NCBI GenBank assembly: GCA_049889815.1
Contig: JBMHCR010000012.1
Coordinates: 738-64,737 of the forward strand
DNA length: 64,000 bases
From: Lentimonas sp.
GTDB taxonomy: Bacteria; Verrucomicrobiota; Verrucomicrobiia; Opitutales; Coraliomargaritaceae
Direction of reading: 5' to 3'
Part shown: in pieces, positions 36,463 to 64,000 of the stretch
Layout: each line of letters opens with the position of its first letter
How positions within the stretch are numbered: position 1 is the stretch's first letter
Program-made: the position numbers and the translations under genes
Notes under the pieces: generated by a model
What the model was told of the DNA's origin: nothing
Database searches by the model: none
The model's input: only the letters and a program-made list of their open reading frames with translations

Positions 36463-37791
36463 TTAAGAATGGCCTGTCTGTTGGCCTGATGAAACTGGTA
36501 GTCCGACCGATGACCGCGCTAGTTTGCTTCGCAAACGGTCGTAGTGGTGGGCACAGTTGGATTCTCCGAAGCGATCGATCGTTTCGCTGGGATCTTCGAA
36601 AAGATCAAAAAGTTGGTAACGGGTAGCGCTATCCATGTGGCTGGCAATGAGTTTCCAGCGGGTTTCGGTGATCATACGCTGGTTGTCCATGTAAAGGTTT
36701 ACAATCGAGTCCCTGTGTTCAGCTCTTGGGTTTTCTAGTGTGGCGATCAAGTTTAGACTGTCGACGCCTTCGGGAGTCTCTAGTTCGCACAGTCCGCAGA
36801 GGGTAGCGTAGCAATCCCATGAGTAGATGAGCGATTCTGAAACTTGATTTACTGGTATATTTGGACCTGCCATTATAAACGGGACACGGGCGCTATGCTC
36901 GTAGACATTTTGTTTGCCCAGCAGTCCGTGTTGGCCGACTGCCAACCCGTGGTCGCCCGTGTAAATGGTGATGGTGTTGTCTAATTGATGACTCATTTCG
37001 AGTGCGTTGAGGATGCGCCCGATACCAGCATCCATCGCGGTGATCATGCCATAGTAATCTGTAAGTTCTTTTTGGATACGTTCTGGAGTACGTGGGTAGG
37101 GCGCCAGGCATTCATCGCGGATGTTTTTTACGCCAAGATCGAAGGGATGCTCTGGTATGAAGTTTGTGGGTACCGGTATTTGACCAGCTTTGTAGTGCTG
37201 AATGTGGTCGATCGGAGGTGTACGCGGGTCATGCGGTGCGGTGAACGCACAGTAGAGAAAGAAGGGTTGCTCGCGATCGTAGTCCTTAATGAACTCGCAG
37301 GCAGTGTCACAGAATTGATCTGTGGCGAAGTTTTTGCATTCCTCAATTTGTTTTTCGGGAAACAGTCCACTGGGATCGAATGACCGCAGTGGAGTGGCAT
37401 AGTGGTCGTCCATGCCGCCAGCAAAGATTGCCGCTCCATCGTTAAAACTACGAGTCAGGCTGGCAGTATCGTTGTGCCATTTTCCTGTTACGTAGCTATG
37501 GTAGCCGTTGCGCTTGAAGCATTCTGGTAGCGTCACCCGATCGGGGTCAATGACCCCGCGTCCCCCGCGCATGGAGCCATAGAAATCCATCCCAGTGAGC
37601 AGACTCGCGCGGGTCGGCACGCAGACGGCGTCGTCGCAACCACCCATGTGGTAGGCGCGAGTGAATGCAGTGCCGCGAGCGGCGAGTCGATCCAAATGCG
37701 GTGTATGCACCGCCTTGCATCCAGCCCAGTGCATTGCAGTGCTCTGATGGTCGTCCGCAACGAGCATGACAACATTGGGTCGTGATTGCAT
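36463..37791 (-). CDS. Cys-type sulfatase (S1 family) with no signal peptide
   Basis: Starts directly in the conserved core (MQSRPNVVMLVADDH). FGly motif CVPTRASLLTG, later GKWH and TGDHG. An in-frame stop lies 8 codons upstream of the ATG, so no N-terminal extension is possible. Confidence 0.9.
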   Translation of the reverse strand: MQSRPNVVMLVADDHQSTAMHWAGCKAVHTPHLDRLAARGTAFTRAYHMGGCDDAVCVPTRASLLTGMDFYGSMRGGRGVIDPDRVTLPECFKRNGYHSYVTGKWHNDTASLTRSFNDGAAIFAGGMDDHYATPLRSFDPSGLFPEKQIEECKNFATDQFCDTACEFIKDYDREQPFFLYCAFTAPHDPRTPPIDHIQHYKAGQIPVPTNFIPEHPFDLGVKNIRDECLAPYPRTPERIQKELTDYYGMITAMDAGIGRILNALEMSHQLDNTITIYTGDHGLAVGQHGLLGKQNVYEHSARVPFIMAGPNIPVNQVSESLIYSWDCYATLCGLCELETPEGVDSLNLIATLENPRAEHRDSIVNLYMDNQRMITETRWKLIASHMDSATRYQLFDLFEDPSETIDRFGESNCAHHYDRLRSKLARSSVGLPVSSGQQTGHS

Positions 37792-37891
37792 TCTAGGTTT
37801 TTGTCCTACTCTTCATCCTCATGCTTTTATTATGAGATTTTGAAAGGCAGAATAATTTGAATGTTGGGATTTTTTATAGGTAGCGGCGAAG

Positions 37892-39376
37892 TTACTCGAT
37901 CACATGCAACTTACGTGCAGCAGCTTTGGCTTTCAGATCTTCATGAAGCTCTTTGTAGAAGTTGAGGCGCGCCTTTTGGTATTCCCCTGCTTGGAGGAAA
38001 ACACTGCTGACGTTTTGCGCGTTCCAGTCGTTCCACATTTGTGCGAGTTGCTGGCGGAGCTCGGGACTTTGTTCGATGATATTGGTGGATTCGTAGGGGT
38101 CGTTGACCATGTCGAAGAGTTGCGGGCCATCTTGTGAGTAGCCTTCCTTGAGCATCTTGTGAGTCGGTGTGCGGATGGCCCAACCGTTGTTGTCACGGAC
38201 ACGCCAGTAGATGGCTTCGTGGGGAGGTTCGGGGTTTTCACCATTCAAGTGTGGGATGAGGTTCACTCCATCCATTTTGTGTCCTGAAGTATCACCACCG
38301 CCCAAGGCAACTGCAGTTGCGGCGATGTCGAGTGAAGAGACCGGGTAGTCATAATTGAGACCAGCAGGTATACCATCTGGCCAGTGGACAATAAAGGGAA
38401 CCTTGCTGCCACCCTCATACATACTGCCTTTGCCCTTACGTAGGGGTCCGTTGTCAGCCCAGTCTTCGTTCATGTGATTCACTTTTGGGGCGACACCACC
38501 GTTATCGGAAAGAAAGAAGAGGATGGTATTGTCGAACTTGCCAGATTCCTTGAGGGCGCTGATCAGCATGCCGATGCCTTGATCCATAGATTCGATCATT
38601 GCCAGATAGGCGGCACGGTTGCCTGTTTCACCCTTGGCTTTATACTTTTCGATGAGCTCTTTGGGCGCATGCAAGGGGCCATGTGGTGCGTTGTAGGTGA
38701 GGAACAAGCAGAAGGGCTTGTCGCTCTGTTTCATGAAACGTGCAGCGTCTTTGGTGAGAGCAGTGGTTAAATATTCTTCAAATTCGGCGGCATTGGTATT
38801 GCGGAGCAGCGGTTGAGTGCAGCCCTCATTGTGGCCGTAGTTGGGGTTGCCGTTTGCGAGCAGTAATTCGGGATGTGTATCGACCATCTCCGGCCAAAAG
38901 TCGTGGCCACCGGATAGAAAGCCGTAGAAGTAGTCGAAGCCGCGACTGTTTGGGTGAAATGGGTGTGATGCGCCGAGGTGCCATTTTCCGATGATTCCGG
39001 TGCGGTAACCCGCAGGTTTGAGGCGTGTCGCAAAGGTTTTCTCATCGAGGGGTAAACCTTGATGTATATCATATGGGGAGTAACTGTAATTGGTTTCACT
39101 GCCAAAGCGTGCCTGATAGCGACCGGTCACAAATCCGGCGCGTGAAGGGCCGCAATAGGGGTGGGTGACGTAGCCGTTGTGAATGATAGCGCCGTTTTCG
39201 GCGAGACGATCCAGGTTTGGTGTTTCGACGACTGTGGAGCCGGTGAAACCGGTGTCGGCGTAGCCCAGATCATCACACATAATGATGAGGAAGTTCGCTT
39301 TCGATTCACTTCCGAAAAGGTTAGCACTGAGTACGGTTAGAATGAGGAAGAGTTTCAGTGGATTTATAGTGAGCAT
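37892..39376 (-). CDS. secreted Cys-type sulfatase
   Basis: Start set at the ATG at 39376 (MLTINPLKLFLILTVLSANLFG, signal peptide), 2 nt after the upstream stop. NFLIIMCDDLGY, FGly motif CGPSRAGFVTGRY, GKWHLG, SDNGG. Confidence 0.9.
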   Translation of the reverse strand: MLTINPLKLFLILTVLSANLFGSESKANFLIIMCDDLGYADTGFTGSTVVETPNLDRLAENGAIIHNGYVTHPYCGPSRAGFVTGRYQARFGSETNYSYSPYDIHQGLPLDEKTFATRLKPAGYRTGIIGKWHLGASHPFHPNSRGFDYFYGFLSGGHDFWPEMVDTHPELLLANGNPNYGHNEGCTQPLLRNTNAAEFEEYLTTALTKDAARFMKQSDKPFCLFLTYNAPHGPLHAPKELIEKYKAKGETGNRAAYLAMIESMDQGIGMLISALKESGKFDNTILFFLSDNGGVAPKVNHMNEDWADNGPLRKGKGSMYEGGSKVPFIVHWPDGIPAGLNYDYPVSSLDIAATAVALGGGDTSGHKMDGVNLIPHLNGENPEPPHEAIYWRVRDNNGWAIRTPTHKMLKEGYSQDGPQLFDMVNDPYESTNIIEQSPELRQQLAQMWNDWNAQNVSSVFLQAGEYQKARLNFYKELHEDLKAKAAARKLHVIE

Positions 39377-62729: not shown

Positions 62730-62740
62730 TAAAAAGTTGT

Positions 62741-64000
62741 ATGCTGAGATTTTCAAGCAAGTCAATTTTAGCAATTGCGCTCATGCTGCTGTTTGTCACG
62801 CAGCTCAGGGCTACGCGCCCGAACATTTTATTCATCATGTGCGACGATCATGCGACGACTGCGGTGGGCGCGTATGGTAAGCGTTTGGCGTCGCTCAACC
62901 CGACGCCGAATCTGGATCGGCTGGCGCGTGAGGGTATGGTTTTCGAAAACGTCTTTTGTGTGAACTCGATCTGCACACCGAGTCGCGCATCGATCATGAC
63001 GGGGCAGTATTCGCATCGGAACGGGATCTACGATCTTTATGATTCGCTGTCTGCGGAGCAGAGCTACCTTTCGAAAGAAATGAAGCAAGCAGGCTATGAG
63101 ACTGCAGTGATCGGGAAGTGGCACTTGAAGGAAGATCCTGCATTTTTTGACTACTATGCGGTGTTGCCGGGGCAGGGGAAATACTTCGATCCGATCTTCA
63201 ATGTTAGTGAAGGCGGAACACCAGAAAGTGTTCGCTATGACAGCACACTGACTAAATCCGTCCCGGTGATTCACACCAAGGGCCATTCCTCGGATGTGAT
63301 TACGGACCTCTCATTGGATTGGTTGGAGAATGGTCGCGATAAGTCGAAACCCTTTTTCCTCATGCATCACTTCAAGGCGCCGCACGATTGGTTTCAATAT
63401 GCACCACGCTACGAAAGCTATTTGGCAGATGTAGAGATCCCCGAGCCTGAGACTTTGTATGATCAACCTGATCCGAAATTCGGCTCTTTGGCAACTCGTG
63501 GCAAAGGTTCGAGCATTTCCGGTCGCACCCGAAAGGGCTACGCGAATACCTGGCGCAAACAAATCGCACATATGACAGGTGGCCGTGAGTTATCCGAGAA
63601 GGAACGCACGCACTATGCTTATCAAATGTATCTCAAGAAATACCTGCGTTGCGTGAAGGGCATCGATGATAATACACAGCGTCTTCTGGACTATCTTGAA
63701 CAGAACGAGCTCATGGATAATACGGTGATCATCTACACCAGTGATCAGGGTATGTTTCTGGGGGAACACGATTTTATCGACAAACGCTGGATGTATGAGG
63801 AGTCCATTCACATGCCGTTCATCGTTCATTGCCCGCCCATTGTCAAAGCGGGCGCACGTAATGACTGGCTGATCAACAACACCGATTTCGCACCGACCTT
63901 GTTGGAGCTGGCGGGAGTATCAACGCCTGACTACATGCAGGGTGACAGCTTTGCTAGCGCGTTGAGTGGAGCCGCGGAACCGGCTGATTGGAGGCAATCG
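62741..64000 (+). CDS. secreted Cys-type sulfatase, 3'-truncated by the window end
   Basis: Absent from the ORF track because it has no stop in the window. The ATG at 62741 gives MLRFSSKSILAIALMLLFVTQLRATRPNILFIMCDDHA...CTPSRASIMTGQY...GKWHL...TSDQG, open for all 420 codons to position 64000. Confidence 0.85.
   Translation, partial: MLRFSSKSILAIALMLLFVTQLRATRPNILFIMCDDHATTAVGAYGKRLASLNPTPNLDRLAREGMVFENVFCVNSICTPSRASIMTGQYSHRNGIYDLYDSLSAEQSYLSKEMKQAGYETAVIGKWHLKEDPAFFDYYAVLPGQGKYFDPIFNVSEGGTPESVRYDSTLTKSVPVIHTKGHSSDVITDLSLDWLENGRDKSKPFFLMHHFKAPHDWFQYAPRYESYLADVEIPEPETLYDQPDPKFGSLATRGKGSSISGRTRKGYANTWRKQIAHMTGGRELSEKERTHYAYQMYLKKYLRCVKGIDDNTQRLLDYLEQNELMDNTVIIYTSDQGMFLGEHDFIDKRWMYEESIHMPFIVHCPPIVKAGARNDWLINNTDFAPTLLELAGVSTPDYMQGDSFASALSGAAEPADWRQS

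Follow-up and report, generated by a model that had tools for sequence, protein, structure and literature searches.

Gene content of the sulfatase island

The DNA analysed here is a 64,000-nucleotide stretch of a Lentimonas sp. genome (C12:738-64737, hereafter the window), and the 27.5 kb from position 36463 to the window end carry a dense island of sulfatase genes. The genome totals 2.30 Mb in 30 contigs and is rated 99.99% complete. Eighteen genes were delimited in the island using the open reading frame (ORF) listing and Pfam searches, and the eight sulfatases named in the original prediction, which had been made from the DNA letters alone, were all recovered at their places with the PF00884 sulfatase domain. 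Approximately 46 sulfatases are encoded genome-wide, a total from which 0.55 would be expected per 27.5 kb (Poisson P = 1.3e-7). Two further sulfatases lie 3' of the window, contig C12 ending within the tenth, and counting past the window gives 10 sulfatases in 31.2 kb (P = 1.4e-9). The dense sulfatase cluster is therefore genuine, and it runs on past position 64000, with the last two genes beyond it. A second island of like density was observed at C21:156-185 kb, with 10 sulfatase matches in 31 kb and a GH86-type gene at C21:154549.

The left flank of the island consists of housekeeping genes (PEPCK, topoisomerase IV and ligA). Its G+C content is the same as that of the remainder of the window, and no G+C anomaly that would mark it as recently foreign was found in the composition profile of the window. 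An AbiEii/nucleotidyltransferase-type toxin-like gene was also seen in the window (27486-28043, minus strand), with tsaD and ligA on either side.

Besides the sulfatases, the island encodes a GH50 lipoprotein, a secreted beta-propeller protein with Fn3 domains (U807), a right-handed beta-helix protein, a PhoD-like phosphoesterase, a secreted 192-aa protein (U192), four Gfo/Idh/MocA oxidoreductases (GfoA to GfoD) and a small cytochrome c (Table 1), all of them gene types that had been predicted. It had also been stated that the island lacks an importer, a regulator and a formylglycine maturase, and Pfam analysis of the 18 ORFs agreed: there was no match to transporter or regulator families, to the formylglycine-generating enzyme (FGE) or to the anaerobic sulfatase-maturing enzyme (anSME). 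The pair of SusC-like TonB-dependent transporter and SusD-like protein by which a polysaccharide utilization locus (PUL) is recognised was likewise absent from these ORFs. The genes are arranged in tight blocks as described, whereas the reported overlaps largely disappear when the downstream start codon preceding each signal peptide is used. In the 143-nt gap separating two of the sulfatase genes there is a GC-rich palindrome (GGTCGCCTCGGCGAGGCGACC...; window 46968-46997), with a second hairpin at approximately 46885-46912. The palindrome recurs with 96-100% identity at many sites of this genome and of other genomes of the genus, and is a dispersed element like the repetitive extragenic palindromes or a shared terminator.

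Table 1. Genes of the sulfatase island, in window coordinates.
Gene product	Position	Strand	Features
S1 sulfatase, leaderless, probably cytoplasmic	36463..37791	-	PF00884 155 bits; CVPTR
S1_19-like sulfatase	37892..39484	-	CGPSR; probable true start 39376
S1_25-like sulfatase	39379..41055	-	CTPSR
GfoA, Tat-exported Gfo/Idh/MocA	41345..42787	+	PF01408 + PF19051; TRRDFLR leader
U807, secreted 807-aa protein	42827..45250	+	Predicted fold; no Pfam or NCBIfam match
S1_x1, divergent S1 sulfatase	45219..46880	+	CNPSR; probable start 45255; PF00884 104 bits
S1_x2, divergent S1 sulfatase, large insertion	47024..48871	+	CAPSR; PF00884 in two stretches
U192, secreted 192-aa protein	48890..49468	+	No Pfam match
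S1_15-like sulfatase	49475..51034	+	CAPTR
PhoD-like metallophosphoesterase, secreted, DUF7800	51095..52549	+	PF09423 99 bits (cut-off 27); PF25077 53 bits
GH50 lipoprotein, probable exo-beta-agarase	52639..54900	+	FTGC lipobox; Agarase_CBM PF17992 100 bits
GfoB, leaderless Gfo/Idh/MocA	54979..56226	+	PF01408 44 bits; probable start 55021
Small secreted c-type cytochrome, PSCyt1	56229..56717	-	PF07635 27 bits; haem motif CLRCH
GfoC, Tat-exported Gfo/Idh/MocA	56920..58248	+	PF01408, PF19051, TAT_signal
GfoD, Tat-exported Gfo/Idh/MocA	58594..59949	+	Island's closest to BT2158-type glycoside 3-dehydrogenase
Right-handed beta-helix protein, secreted, NosD-type repeats	59951..61303	+	PF05048 42 bits
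S1_x3, S1 sulfatase	61206..62729	+	CVASR; probable start 61293; PF00884 153 bits
S1_11 sulfatase, probable exo-L-galactose-6-sulfatase	62741..64000, 360 nt more past window	+	CTPSR; 539 aa total

Sulfatases and the GH50 lipoprotein

Leaders and formylglycine motifs were read by eye from the translated N-termini. As predicted, the motifs of the eight island sulfatases are of the Cys type, seven being CxPxR and one CxAxR, and seven of the eight proteins have a hydrophobic leader. All ten sulfatases combine PF00884 with a C/S-x-P/A-x-R-type motif, and with an FGE present in the genome they belong to the S1 family. Because pairwise identity among the ten is only 20-41%, they represent ten separate lineages and not tandem duplicates. 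The FGE, which the original prediction had proposed to look for elsewhere in the genome, was located at C7:94774-95631 (PF03781, 278 bits), and no anSME was found in the genome (top score 19.7 bits, cut-off 349). The presence of an FGE without an anSME, together with sulfatases that are all Cys-type, fits an aerobic organism. The nearest relatives of this organism are metagenome-assembled genomes (MAGs) labelled Coraliomargaritaceae or Opitutaceae (Verrucomicrobiota), in agreement with the prediction that a marine bacterium of the Planctomycetes-Verrucomicrobia-Chlamydiae (PVC) group uses this island on sulfated algal glycans. The host is taken to be a small marine verrucomicrobium (2.3 Mb) of the Coraliomargaritaceae/Opitutales group with an aerobic way of life.

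Subfamilies were assigned by nearest solved structure rather than with SulfAtlas hidden Markov models. The sulfatase at the window end belongs to S1_11 by this measure, matching 7lha ('Exo-L-galactose-6-sulfatase', BuS1_11) with 575 bits, aligned over residues 27-534, and 7snj with 567 bits, the two matches together covering residues 24-535, with the GlcNAc-6-sulfatase 5g2v as next-best match at 335 bits; BuS1_11 is a porphyran exo-L-galactose-6-sulfatase (PMC9096561). The S1_19-like sulfatase scored 296-308 bits against 6bia (PfS1_19A, 308), 9hh3 (306; named 'Sulfatase, family S1-19'), 6prm and 6b0j, and S1_16 followed at 235 bits, so that it is closest to S1_19, whose members related to 6BIA are galactose-4-sulfate sulfatases (PMC9096561). 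The S1_15-like enzyme scored 173-185 bits against six S1_15 structures (9bau S1_15B, 185; 6s20, 183), a moderate margin over S1_19 at 147, and its relatives S1_15A/B are galactose/GalNAc-6-sulfate exo-sulfatases (PMC12549532). The margin was also moderate for the S1_25-like enzyme (225 bits against 6hr5, P36_S1_25; next match 161), which we place with S1_25 tentatively. The best solved relative of the leaderless sulfatase, whose N-terminus opens directly at the conserved PNVVMLVADD strand, is 5g2v at just 138 bits, and the best solved relatives of S1_x1, S1_x2 and S1_x3 scored 82, 87 and 135 bits, respectively.

The GH50 lipoprotein matched 5z6p with 693 bits and the beta-agarase Aga50D (4bq2) with 659 bits, a full-length match covering residues 45-751. 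The motifs GIFIDNE and GEVHFGA, the latter in the agarase form GE(V/F)HFGA, are kept, and their glutamates are identical to those of 5z6p; following the Aga50D literature, we take the catalytic residues to be an acid/base in the IDNE motif and a nucleophile in the GEFHFGA motif. At roughly 50% similarity to agarases, the protein is probably an exo-beta-agarase. Its nearest relative (73% protein identity) is encoded by a Coraliomargaritaceae MAG, L006. The gene mix had been inferred to fit none of the canonical loci for agar, carrageenan or fucoidan; GH50 and S1_11 are hallmarks of agar and porphyran degradation, and that inference is not upheld.

Agar- and porphyran-type genes elsewhere in the genome

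Genome-wide searches gave nine matches to PF18206 (GH86-type), two to GH16 and nine to GH29. The region C21:1-20 kb contains four GH86-type genes (PF18206 with PF18040), a GH29, a GH2, two paralogues of S1_x2 and a 370-aa GH117-like protein. Another GH50 (36% identity, E 1e-118) lies at C13:68-87 kb, in a region that also encodes a GPH symporter, an AraC regulator, one sulfatase, two GH2 enzymes, an aldehyde dehydrogenase and an MR_MLE::GH117-like fusion. From its domain content and established knowledge, such a set would be expected to serve the uptake of neoagarobiose and the catabolism of 3,6-anhydro-L-galactose.

Two gene fusions were observed in these regions. The first (C13:75503-77740, equal to L069:7504-9741, minus strand), located between a GH2 gene and the aldehyde dehydrogenase, encodes a 745-aa protein in which an MR_MLE (cycloisomerase-like) domain is joined to a GH117-like propeller with a 'SAASIR' motif; it has an 89% orthologue in genome G054 and would let a single protein carry out two steps of neoagarobiose catabolism. 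The second (C21:16967-19732, equal to L070:16967-19732, minus strand) encodes a 921-aa GH86-type protein (PF18206, PF18040) with a C-terminal TIM barrel (PF01261), and judging from these domains it appears to join an agarase/porphyranase-type enzyme with a class used in 3-keto-glycoside pathways. In addition, a sulfatase paralogous to S1_x1 seems to be split over C4:160-413 (minus strand) and C30:67-554 (plus strand), so that the starts of these two contigs probably adjoin each other. Taken together, they make up a second glycan island, which has six GH29 genes, a GH16, two DUF1080 genes, two U807-related 350-aa propellers and approximately six sulfatases.

With moderate confidence, we conclude that at least three dispersed loci, the window island among them, together serve to degrade sulfated red-algal agars (agarose, porphyran and agaropectin-type galactans). 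The computed basis for this reading comprises homologies, domain content, synteny and phyletic co-occurrence, and from it we infer the identity of the substrate, the order and compartment of action, co-regulation, and the roles of U807, U192, the beta-helix protein and the PhoD-like protein. The suggestion that the substrate and part of the chemistry may be new is not the best reading, given the agar/porphyran set elsewhere in the genome and the occurrence of the S1_19-, S1_15- and S1_25-like subfamilies in a characterised PUL.

A conserved core operon in related genomes

Synteny in related genomes, a further check suggested with the original prediction, gave a divided answer in that a core operon is kept and the island as a block is not. 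In the cultured type strain Coraliomargarita akajimensis DSM 45221 the gene order is a two-component regulator, GfoA (78% identity), U807 (66%), S1_x2 (63%), U192 (66%), an S1_x2-like sulfatase, S1_19 (58%), an S1_19-like sulfatase, S1_15 (73%), DUF1080 and more sulfatases. A metagenome contig, L072, carries S1_x2 (85%), U192 (80%), other genes, S1_19, S1_15 (83%), DUF1080, the PhoD-like gene (87%) and, 3' of it, S1_x3 (80%). Pontiella agarivorans, able to grow on agar and iota-carrageenan, combines U807 with two copies of S1_x1 and with S1_x2, next to the same type of regulator. The 78% GfoA orthologue lies directly upstream of the propeller gene in genome G037 as well as in C. akajimensis, orthologues of S1_x1 (59-60%) adjoin the propeller gene in G037 and P. 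agarivorans, and five other genomes have orthologues of S1_x2 (55-85%) next to the gene for the propeller, for U192 or for both. U192 is always directly 3' of an S1_x2-type sulfatase, and orthologues of the S1_15-like gene (73-83%) fall within the conserved operon. The window thus contains a rearranged copy of a conserved operon from which DUF1080 and the regulator were lost; the parts conserved in the window are Tat-Gfo, U807, the divergent sulfatases, U192, S1_19, S1_15 and the PhoD-like gene.

Full-length U807 was found in exactly 5 of 81 genomes of the family, and these are the genomes with at least four GH86-type matches (Fisher p = 3.9e-8, in a test that ignores phylogeny, the five genomes falling in two genera only). 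A second family-level draw (n=400) gave 73 genomes, nearly all of them in the first sample, and left the size of the test unchanged. In G054, a module of U807, S1_x2, U192 and the PhoD-like gene lies approximately 10 kb from an agar-catabolism-type cluster on the same contig, consisting of GH2, the MR_MLE::GH117-like fusion (89%), aldehyde dehydrogenase (90%), GH2 and AraC. The module abuts a GH50 in genome G029 and has a GH86-like gene upstream in G037. In L006 the order is GfoD (91%), GH50 (73%), a TIM barrel, an NHL protein, a PSCyt cytochrome protein, DUF1552, GH86 and a sulfatase.

A number of observations weigh against a dedicated agar/porphyran locus. Orthologues of the island genes in the genus (65-77% nucleotide identity) are on several different contigs, and on at least five in G054. 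The GH50 region had no DNA match in seven other genomes of the genus, within which GH50 is strain-specific. Because the genes are scattered in these relatives and GH50 is absent there, co-regulation of the island as one unit is unproven. No agarase was found within 20 kb of the C. akajimensis core operon, a result that covers these 20-kb surroundings. The island itself comprises at least four transcription units in both orientations, and a scan for promoters and terminators did no better than chance (17 against 21.8 and 20 against 18.3 in shuffles), the single notable hit being a terminator-like hairpin at 56244-56262, 3' of GfoB. GH50 is a polyspecific family that includes beta-glucuronidase, beta-1,3-glucanase and beta-galactosidase members. 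Finally, characterised relatives of the S1_19 and S1_15 enzymes act on kappa/iota- and lambda-carrageenan (PMC9096561, PMC12549532), and those of the S1_25 enzyme on ulvan or fucan (PMC9096561).

Several of these points would be accommodated if independent modules shared the site but not a substrate or a regulon, with carrageenan-type glycans handled by the S1_19- and S1_15-like enzymes, fucan- or ulvan-like ones by the S1_25-like enzyme, and agar only by a recently added GH50 and S1_11. The mosaic synteny, the missing GH50 match in the genus, the substrates of the characterised sulfatase relatives and the several transcription units all point in this direction, as do the division of ten sulfatases into ten lineages and the C. 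akajimensis core (GfoA, U807, S1_x2, U192, S1_19, S1_15 and DUF1080), which has its own two-component regulator and no agarase nearby. We nevertheless regard such a multi-substrate depot as unlikely. Full-length U807 is restricted to the GH86-rich genomes of the family, the module adjoins an agar-catabolism-type cluster, a GH50 or a GH86 in four other genomes, and paralogues of S1_x2 are found inside the GH86/GH29/GH2 locus on C21. A characterised agar/porphyran PUL has the same S1_15, S1_19 and S1_25 subfamilies, and no Pfam match to a carrageenase, ulvan lyase or fucanase was obtained in the 18 ORFs or the other scanned loci, no genome-wide search by accession having been made.

U807, U192 and the PhoD-like and beta-helix proteins

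The structure of U807 was predicted using AlphaFold (AF2), which gave a predicted local distance difference test score of 91 over the whole protein and 95 over residues 370-807. The model consists of an N-terminal beta-sandwich, two Fn3 domains, a five-bladed beta-propeller plus a beta-sandwich at the C-terminus. As a Foldseek search with the full-length model was swamped by Fn3-rich receptors and titin, the C-terminal 438 residues were re-predicted and searched alone, and matched propellers of GH32, GH117, GH159, GH62 and GH43 at 9-13% identity. Membership of GH117 was considered and rejected: hhalign against the GH117-like proteins of this genome gave a probability of 25.6% (E 7e-4, 110 columns), and Foldseek identity was 11-13%. 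What the two have in common is limited to the fold of a five-bladed propeller and an RDP...DGxYH-like motif, and because of the 25.6% profile probability U807 is described as having a GH117 fold without being a GH117 member.

There are 96 homologues of U807 (43-68% identity) in algal-glycan degraders such as Pontiella, Rhodopirellula, Zobellia, Wenyingzhuangia and Maribacter, and a few bear the generic name "glycoside hydrolase family protein". The propeller domain forms 768 clusters at 50% identity in the protein library. No Pfam model for the catalytic domain was matched in nine members that were scanned, some of which have carbohydrate-type accessory domains. Three stand-alone 350-aa propellers elsewhere in the genome are distantly related to U807 (23-33%, E 3e-9 to 1e-7). 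Its residues D409, E597 and E658 are almost invariant. U807 is a candidate for an unclassified glycoside hydrolase.

U192 had been called an orphan. In fact it has 16 homologues, one of them in C. akajimensis, which form a narrow verrucomicrobial family. The PhoD-like protein scored 36 bits against the NCBIfam AlkPhosPhoDBac equivalog, for which the cut-off is 1000. Its family numbers more than 1400 proteins at E <= 1e-20, of which the 120 matches listed have 53-87% identity, and is spread over Planctomycetota, Verrucomicrobiota, Lentisphaerae, Pontiellaceae and Rhodothermales; secreted proteins to which no specific role has been given are rarely so strongly conserved. The gene is linked to the module in G054 and L072. 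The beta-helix protein was also considered as a GH28 or a pectate lyase, and both were rejected as no match to these Pfam families was obtained even at E <= 1.

U807, U192 and the beta-helix protein fall outside all curated families, four of the ten sulfatases reach at most 138 bits against any solved sulfatase, and a PhoD-like phosphoesterase and Tat-Gfo with cytochrome c are foreign to textbook agar pathways. Together with the polyspecificity of GH50, these features are what could still be cited for the original prediction's own reading, namely an undescribed sulfated glycan degraded by partly new chemistry, with agarase-like and L-Gal-6-sulfatase-like genes recruited to a substrate other than agar. 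We consider this improbable. GH50 and S1_11 match enzymes of proven agar/porphyran activity over their full length at 575-693 bits, the genome holds the GH86, GH117-like, aldehyde dehydrogenase and cycloisomerase-like set, and in related genomes the uncharacterised genes are found together with agar-type ones. As far as sequence comparison can tell, the substrate is most likely not new and is of the agar/porphyran kind, which makes the island a further case in a little-studied lineage.

Gfo/Idh/MocA oxidoreductases and a possible oxidative branch

Three of the four Gfo/Idh/MocA proteins have an RR-type leader for twin-arginine translocation (Tat). Against the BT_2158 family (NF058561), GfoD scored 351 bits, GfoA 284, GfoC 144 and GfoB 19, all under the equivalog cut-off of 750. 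GfoA resembles glycoside 3-dehydrogenase, and GfoD also matched the dehydrogenases 8tdf and 8tdh with 219 bits. A literature look-up on 8TDF, which is presumably tied to a published oxidative glycan-breakdown pathway, gave nothing relevant. BT2158 itself is exported by Tat and has been proposed to convert disaccharides into 3-keto-disaccharides by oxidation (PMC8121099). The island has the Tat leader and Gfo fold of this system, and the DUF1080 and TIM-barrel partner genes are absent from the island itself. They were found in orthologous operons, DUF1080 in L071 and L072 and a xylose-isomerase-like TIM barrel in L006, where the GfoD orthologue adjoins that of GH50. Seven or eight DUF1080 3-keto-disaccharide hydrolases are encoded genome-wide. 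Approximately 20 kb upstream of the island, the window also contains a xylose-isomerase-like TIM barrel, two ThuA-domain proteins, a Tat-Gfo, DUF3500 and a convergent MFS transporter (11520-17791), a cluster that by its gene content appears to be another periplasmic sugar-oxidation module.

It is conceivable, and we offer it only tentatively, that the core of Tat-Gfo, U807, S1_x1/S1_x2 and U192, with DUF1080 in relatives, is an unrecognised route for sulfated red-algal galactans, in which U807 would found a new glycoside hydrolase family and periplasmic Gfo enzymes, possibly coupled to the cytochrome, would make 3-keto ends that are cut by DUF1080 proteins and TIM barrels. If true, agar/porphyran breakdown would have an oxidative, non-hydrolytic branch. 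Pointers to such a branch are the GH86-type::TIM-barrel fusion, the gene order in L006 and the DUF1080 genes in orthologous operons. The remaining interest of the island lies in this conserved uncharacterised module and in the recurrent pairing of Tat-dehydrogenase, TIM barrel, DUF1080 and cytochrome with agar-type genes.

Proposed pathway and significance

In the agar/porphyran reading, endo-acting GH86 and GH16 enzymes from other loci would first cut the polymer. The ten Cys-type sulfatases, matured by the single FGE, would then strip sulfate esters from the resulting oligosaccharides: the S1_11 enzyme would take the 6-sulfate from non-reducing-end L-galactose, as BuS1_11 does, and the S1_19-like and S1_15-like enzymes would probably remove the 4- and 6-sulfates of D-galactose. 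The GH50 lipoprotein would free neoagarobiose from neutral stretches, and the U807 propeller is the leading candidate for the role of an exo-glycosidase that would attack a linkage exposed by the neighbouring sulfatases S1_x1 and S1_x2. Products would be imported via the GPH-type symporter, after which the leaderless sulfatase could act on imported sulfated sugar, and the GH117-like, aldehyde dehydrogenase and cycloisomerase-like enzymes encoded on another contig would complete breakdown in the cytoplasm. The three Tat-Gfo proteins and the small cytochrome c are probably a side route that turns sugar hydroxyls into keto groups, preparing linkages for the DUF1080 3-keto-glycoside hydrolases and TIM-barrel enzymes whose genes lie elsewhere.

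The Verrucomicrobiota are known to specialise in sulfated algal glycans, but the biochemistry comes almost entirely from Bacteroidota PULs. The island illustrates how a 2.3-Mb genome without SusCD may spread an agar/porphyran-type system over several loci, with one dense desulfation island alongside importer, regulator, maturase and cytoplasmic catabolism genes located elsewhere. As a finding of a glycan-degradation island with an unknown substrate it is largely explained, and hence ordinary. It does provide targets that are conserved by agar-type genes in several genomes or phyla: the 768-cluster propeller family, for which neither Pfam nor NCBIfam has a model, the two divergent sulfatase lineages and the Tat-exported dehydrogenases. 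The core operon is present in C. akajimensis, a cultured type strain, and the questions are therefore open to bench testing.

Comparison with known systems

The closest counterparts in function are the agar/porphyran PULs of Bacteroidota. That of C. baltica DSM 24729 has 12 sulfatases, of which the expressed ones are S1_15, S1_19 and S1_25, and requires S1_11 activity to proceed (doi 10.64898/2026.05.19.726164, Helbert et al. 2026 preprint); those of B. plebeius and B. uniformis NP1 are considered here to the extent that PMC9096561 describes them in citing Robb et al. 2022. Many S1 sulfatases, including S1_11, S1_15, S1_19 and S1_25, occur together with exo-glycosidases in both these PULs and the present system, the overall toolkit comprises GH50, GH86, GH16, GH29, GH2 and GH117, and there are beta-helix proteins of unclear role (GH28 in C. 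baltica). By analogy, an exo-L-Gal-6-sulfatase would gate further breakdown here as it does there. The present system differs in having no SusC/SusD pair and in the distribution of its genes over at least three loci instead of one PUL. The island is without an endo-hydrolase, GH29, GH2 or GH117, and adds Tat-Gfo, cytochrome c, the PhoD-like protein and U807.

Marine Gammaproteobacteria such as Saccharophagus degradans (PDB 4BQ2) carry out agarolysis of the Aga50D type, with a 3,6-anhydro-L-galactose pathway. The GH50 described here is similar to Aga50D (659 bits), and both systems have a cluster of GH117-like, aldehyde dehydrogenase and enolase-superfamily genes. In the present genome the cycloisomerase-like and GH117-like parts are fused in one 745-aa protein, and the system is embedded in sulfatase-rich islands that seem to be aimed at sulfated agars and not at neutral agarose.

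Other PVC clusters, namely those of Pontiella (PMC10880615), of Kiritimatiellia, in which GH50, GH86 and GH117 co-localise with S1_15 and S1_19 (preprint doi 10.64898/2026.10.06.756941), and of bloom Verrucomicrobiota (PMC8857213), resemble this system in their high sulfatase density, the absence of SusCD, the combination of GH50/GH86/GH117 with S1_15 and S1_19, and conserved auxiliary genes. The module of U807, S1_x1 and S1_x2 is common to P. agarivorans at 59-66% identity. In contrast to Pontiella, with 165-500 sulfatases, the present genome has approximately 46 in 2.3 Mb and is of the aerobic type, with FGE only; its copy of the module is without the two-component regulator that flanks those of Pontiella and C. 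akajimensis.

Lastly, the BT2156-BT2160 pathway of Bacteroides thetaiotaomicron (Liu et al. 2021, PMC8121099) resembles the oxidative genes of the island, as GfoA, GfoC and GfoD are Tat-exported and have BT_2158 as their best NCBIfam match, and DUF1080 proteins and xylose-isomerase-like TIM barrels, which in this case are encoded elsewhere in the genome and in the orthologous operons of relatives, are found in both. The scores of 144-351 bits are far under 750, and the island holds no DUF1080 or TIM-barrel gene. Whereas the Bacteroides pathway acts on neutral disaccharides, the genes described here stand in the context of a sulfated galactan, with a c-type cytochrome adjacent to them.

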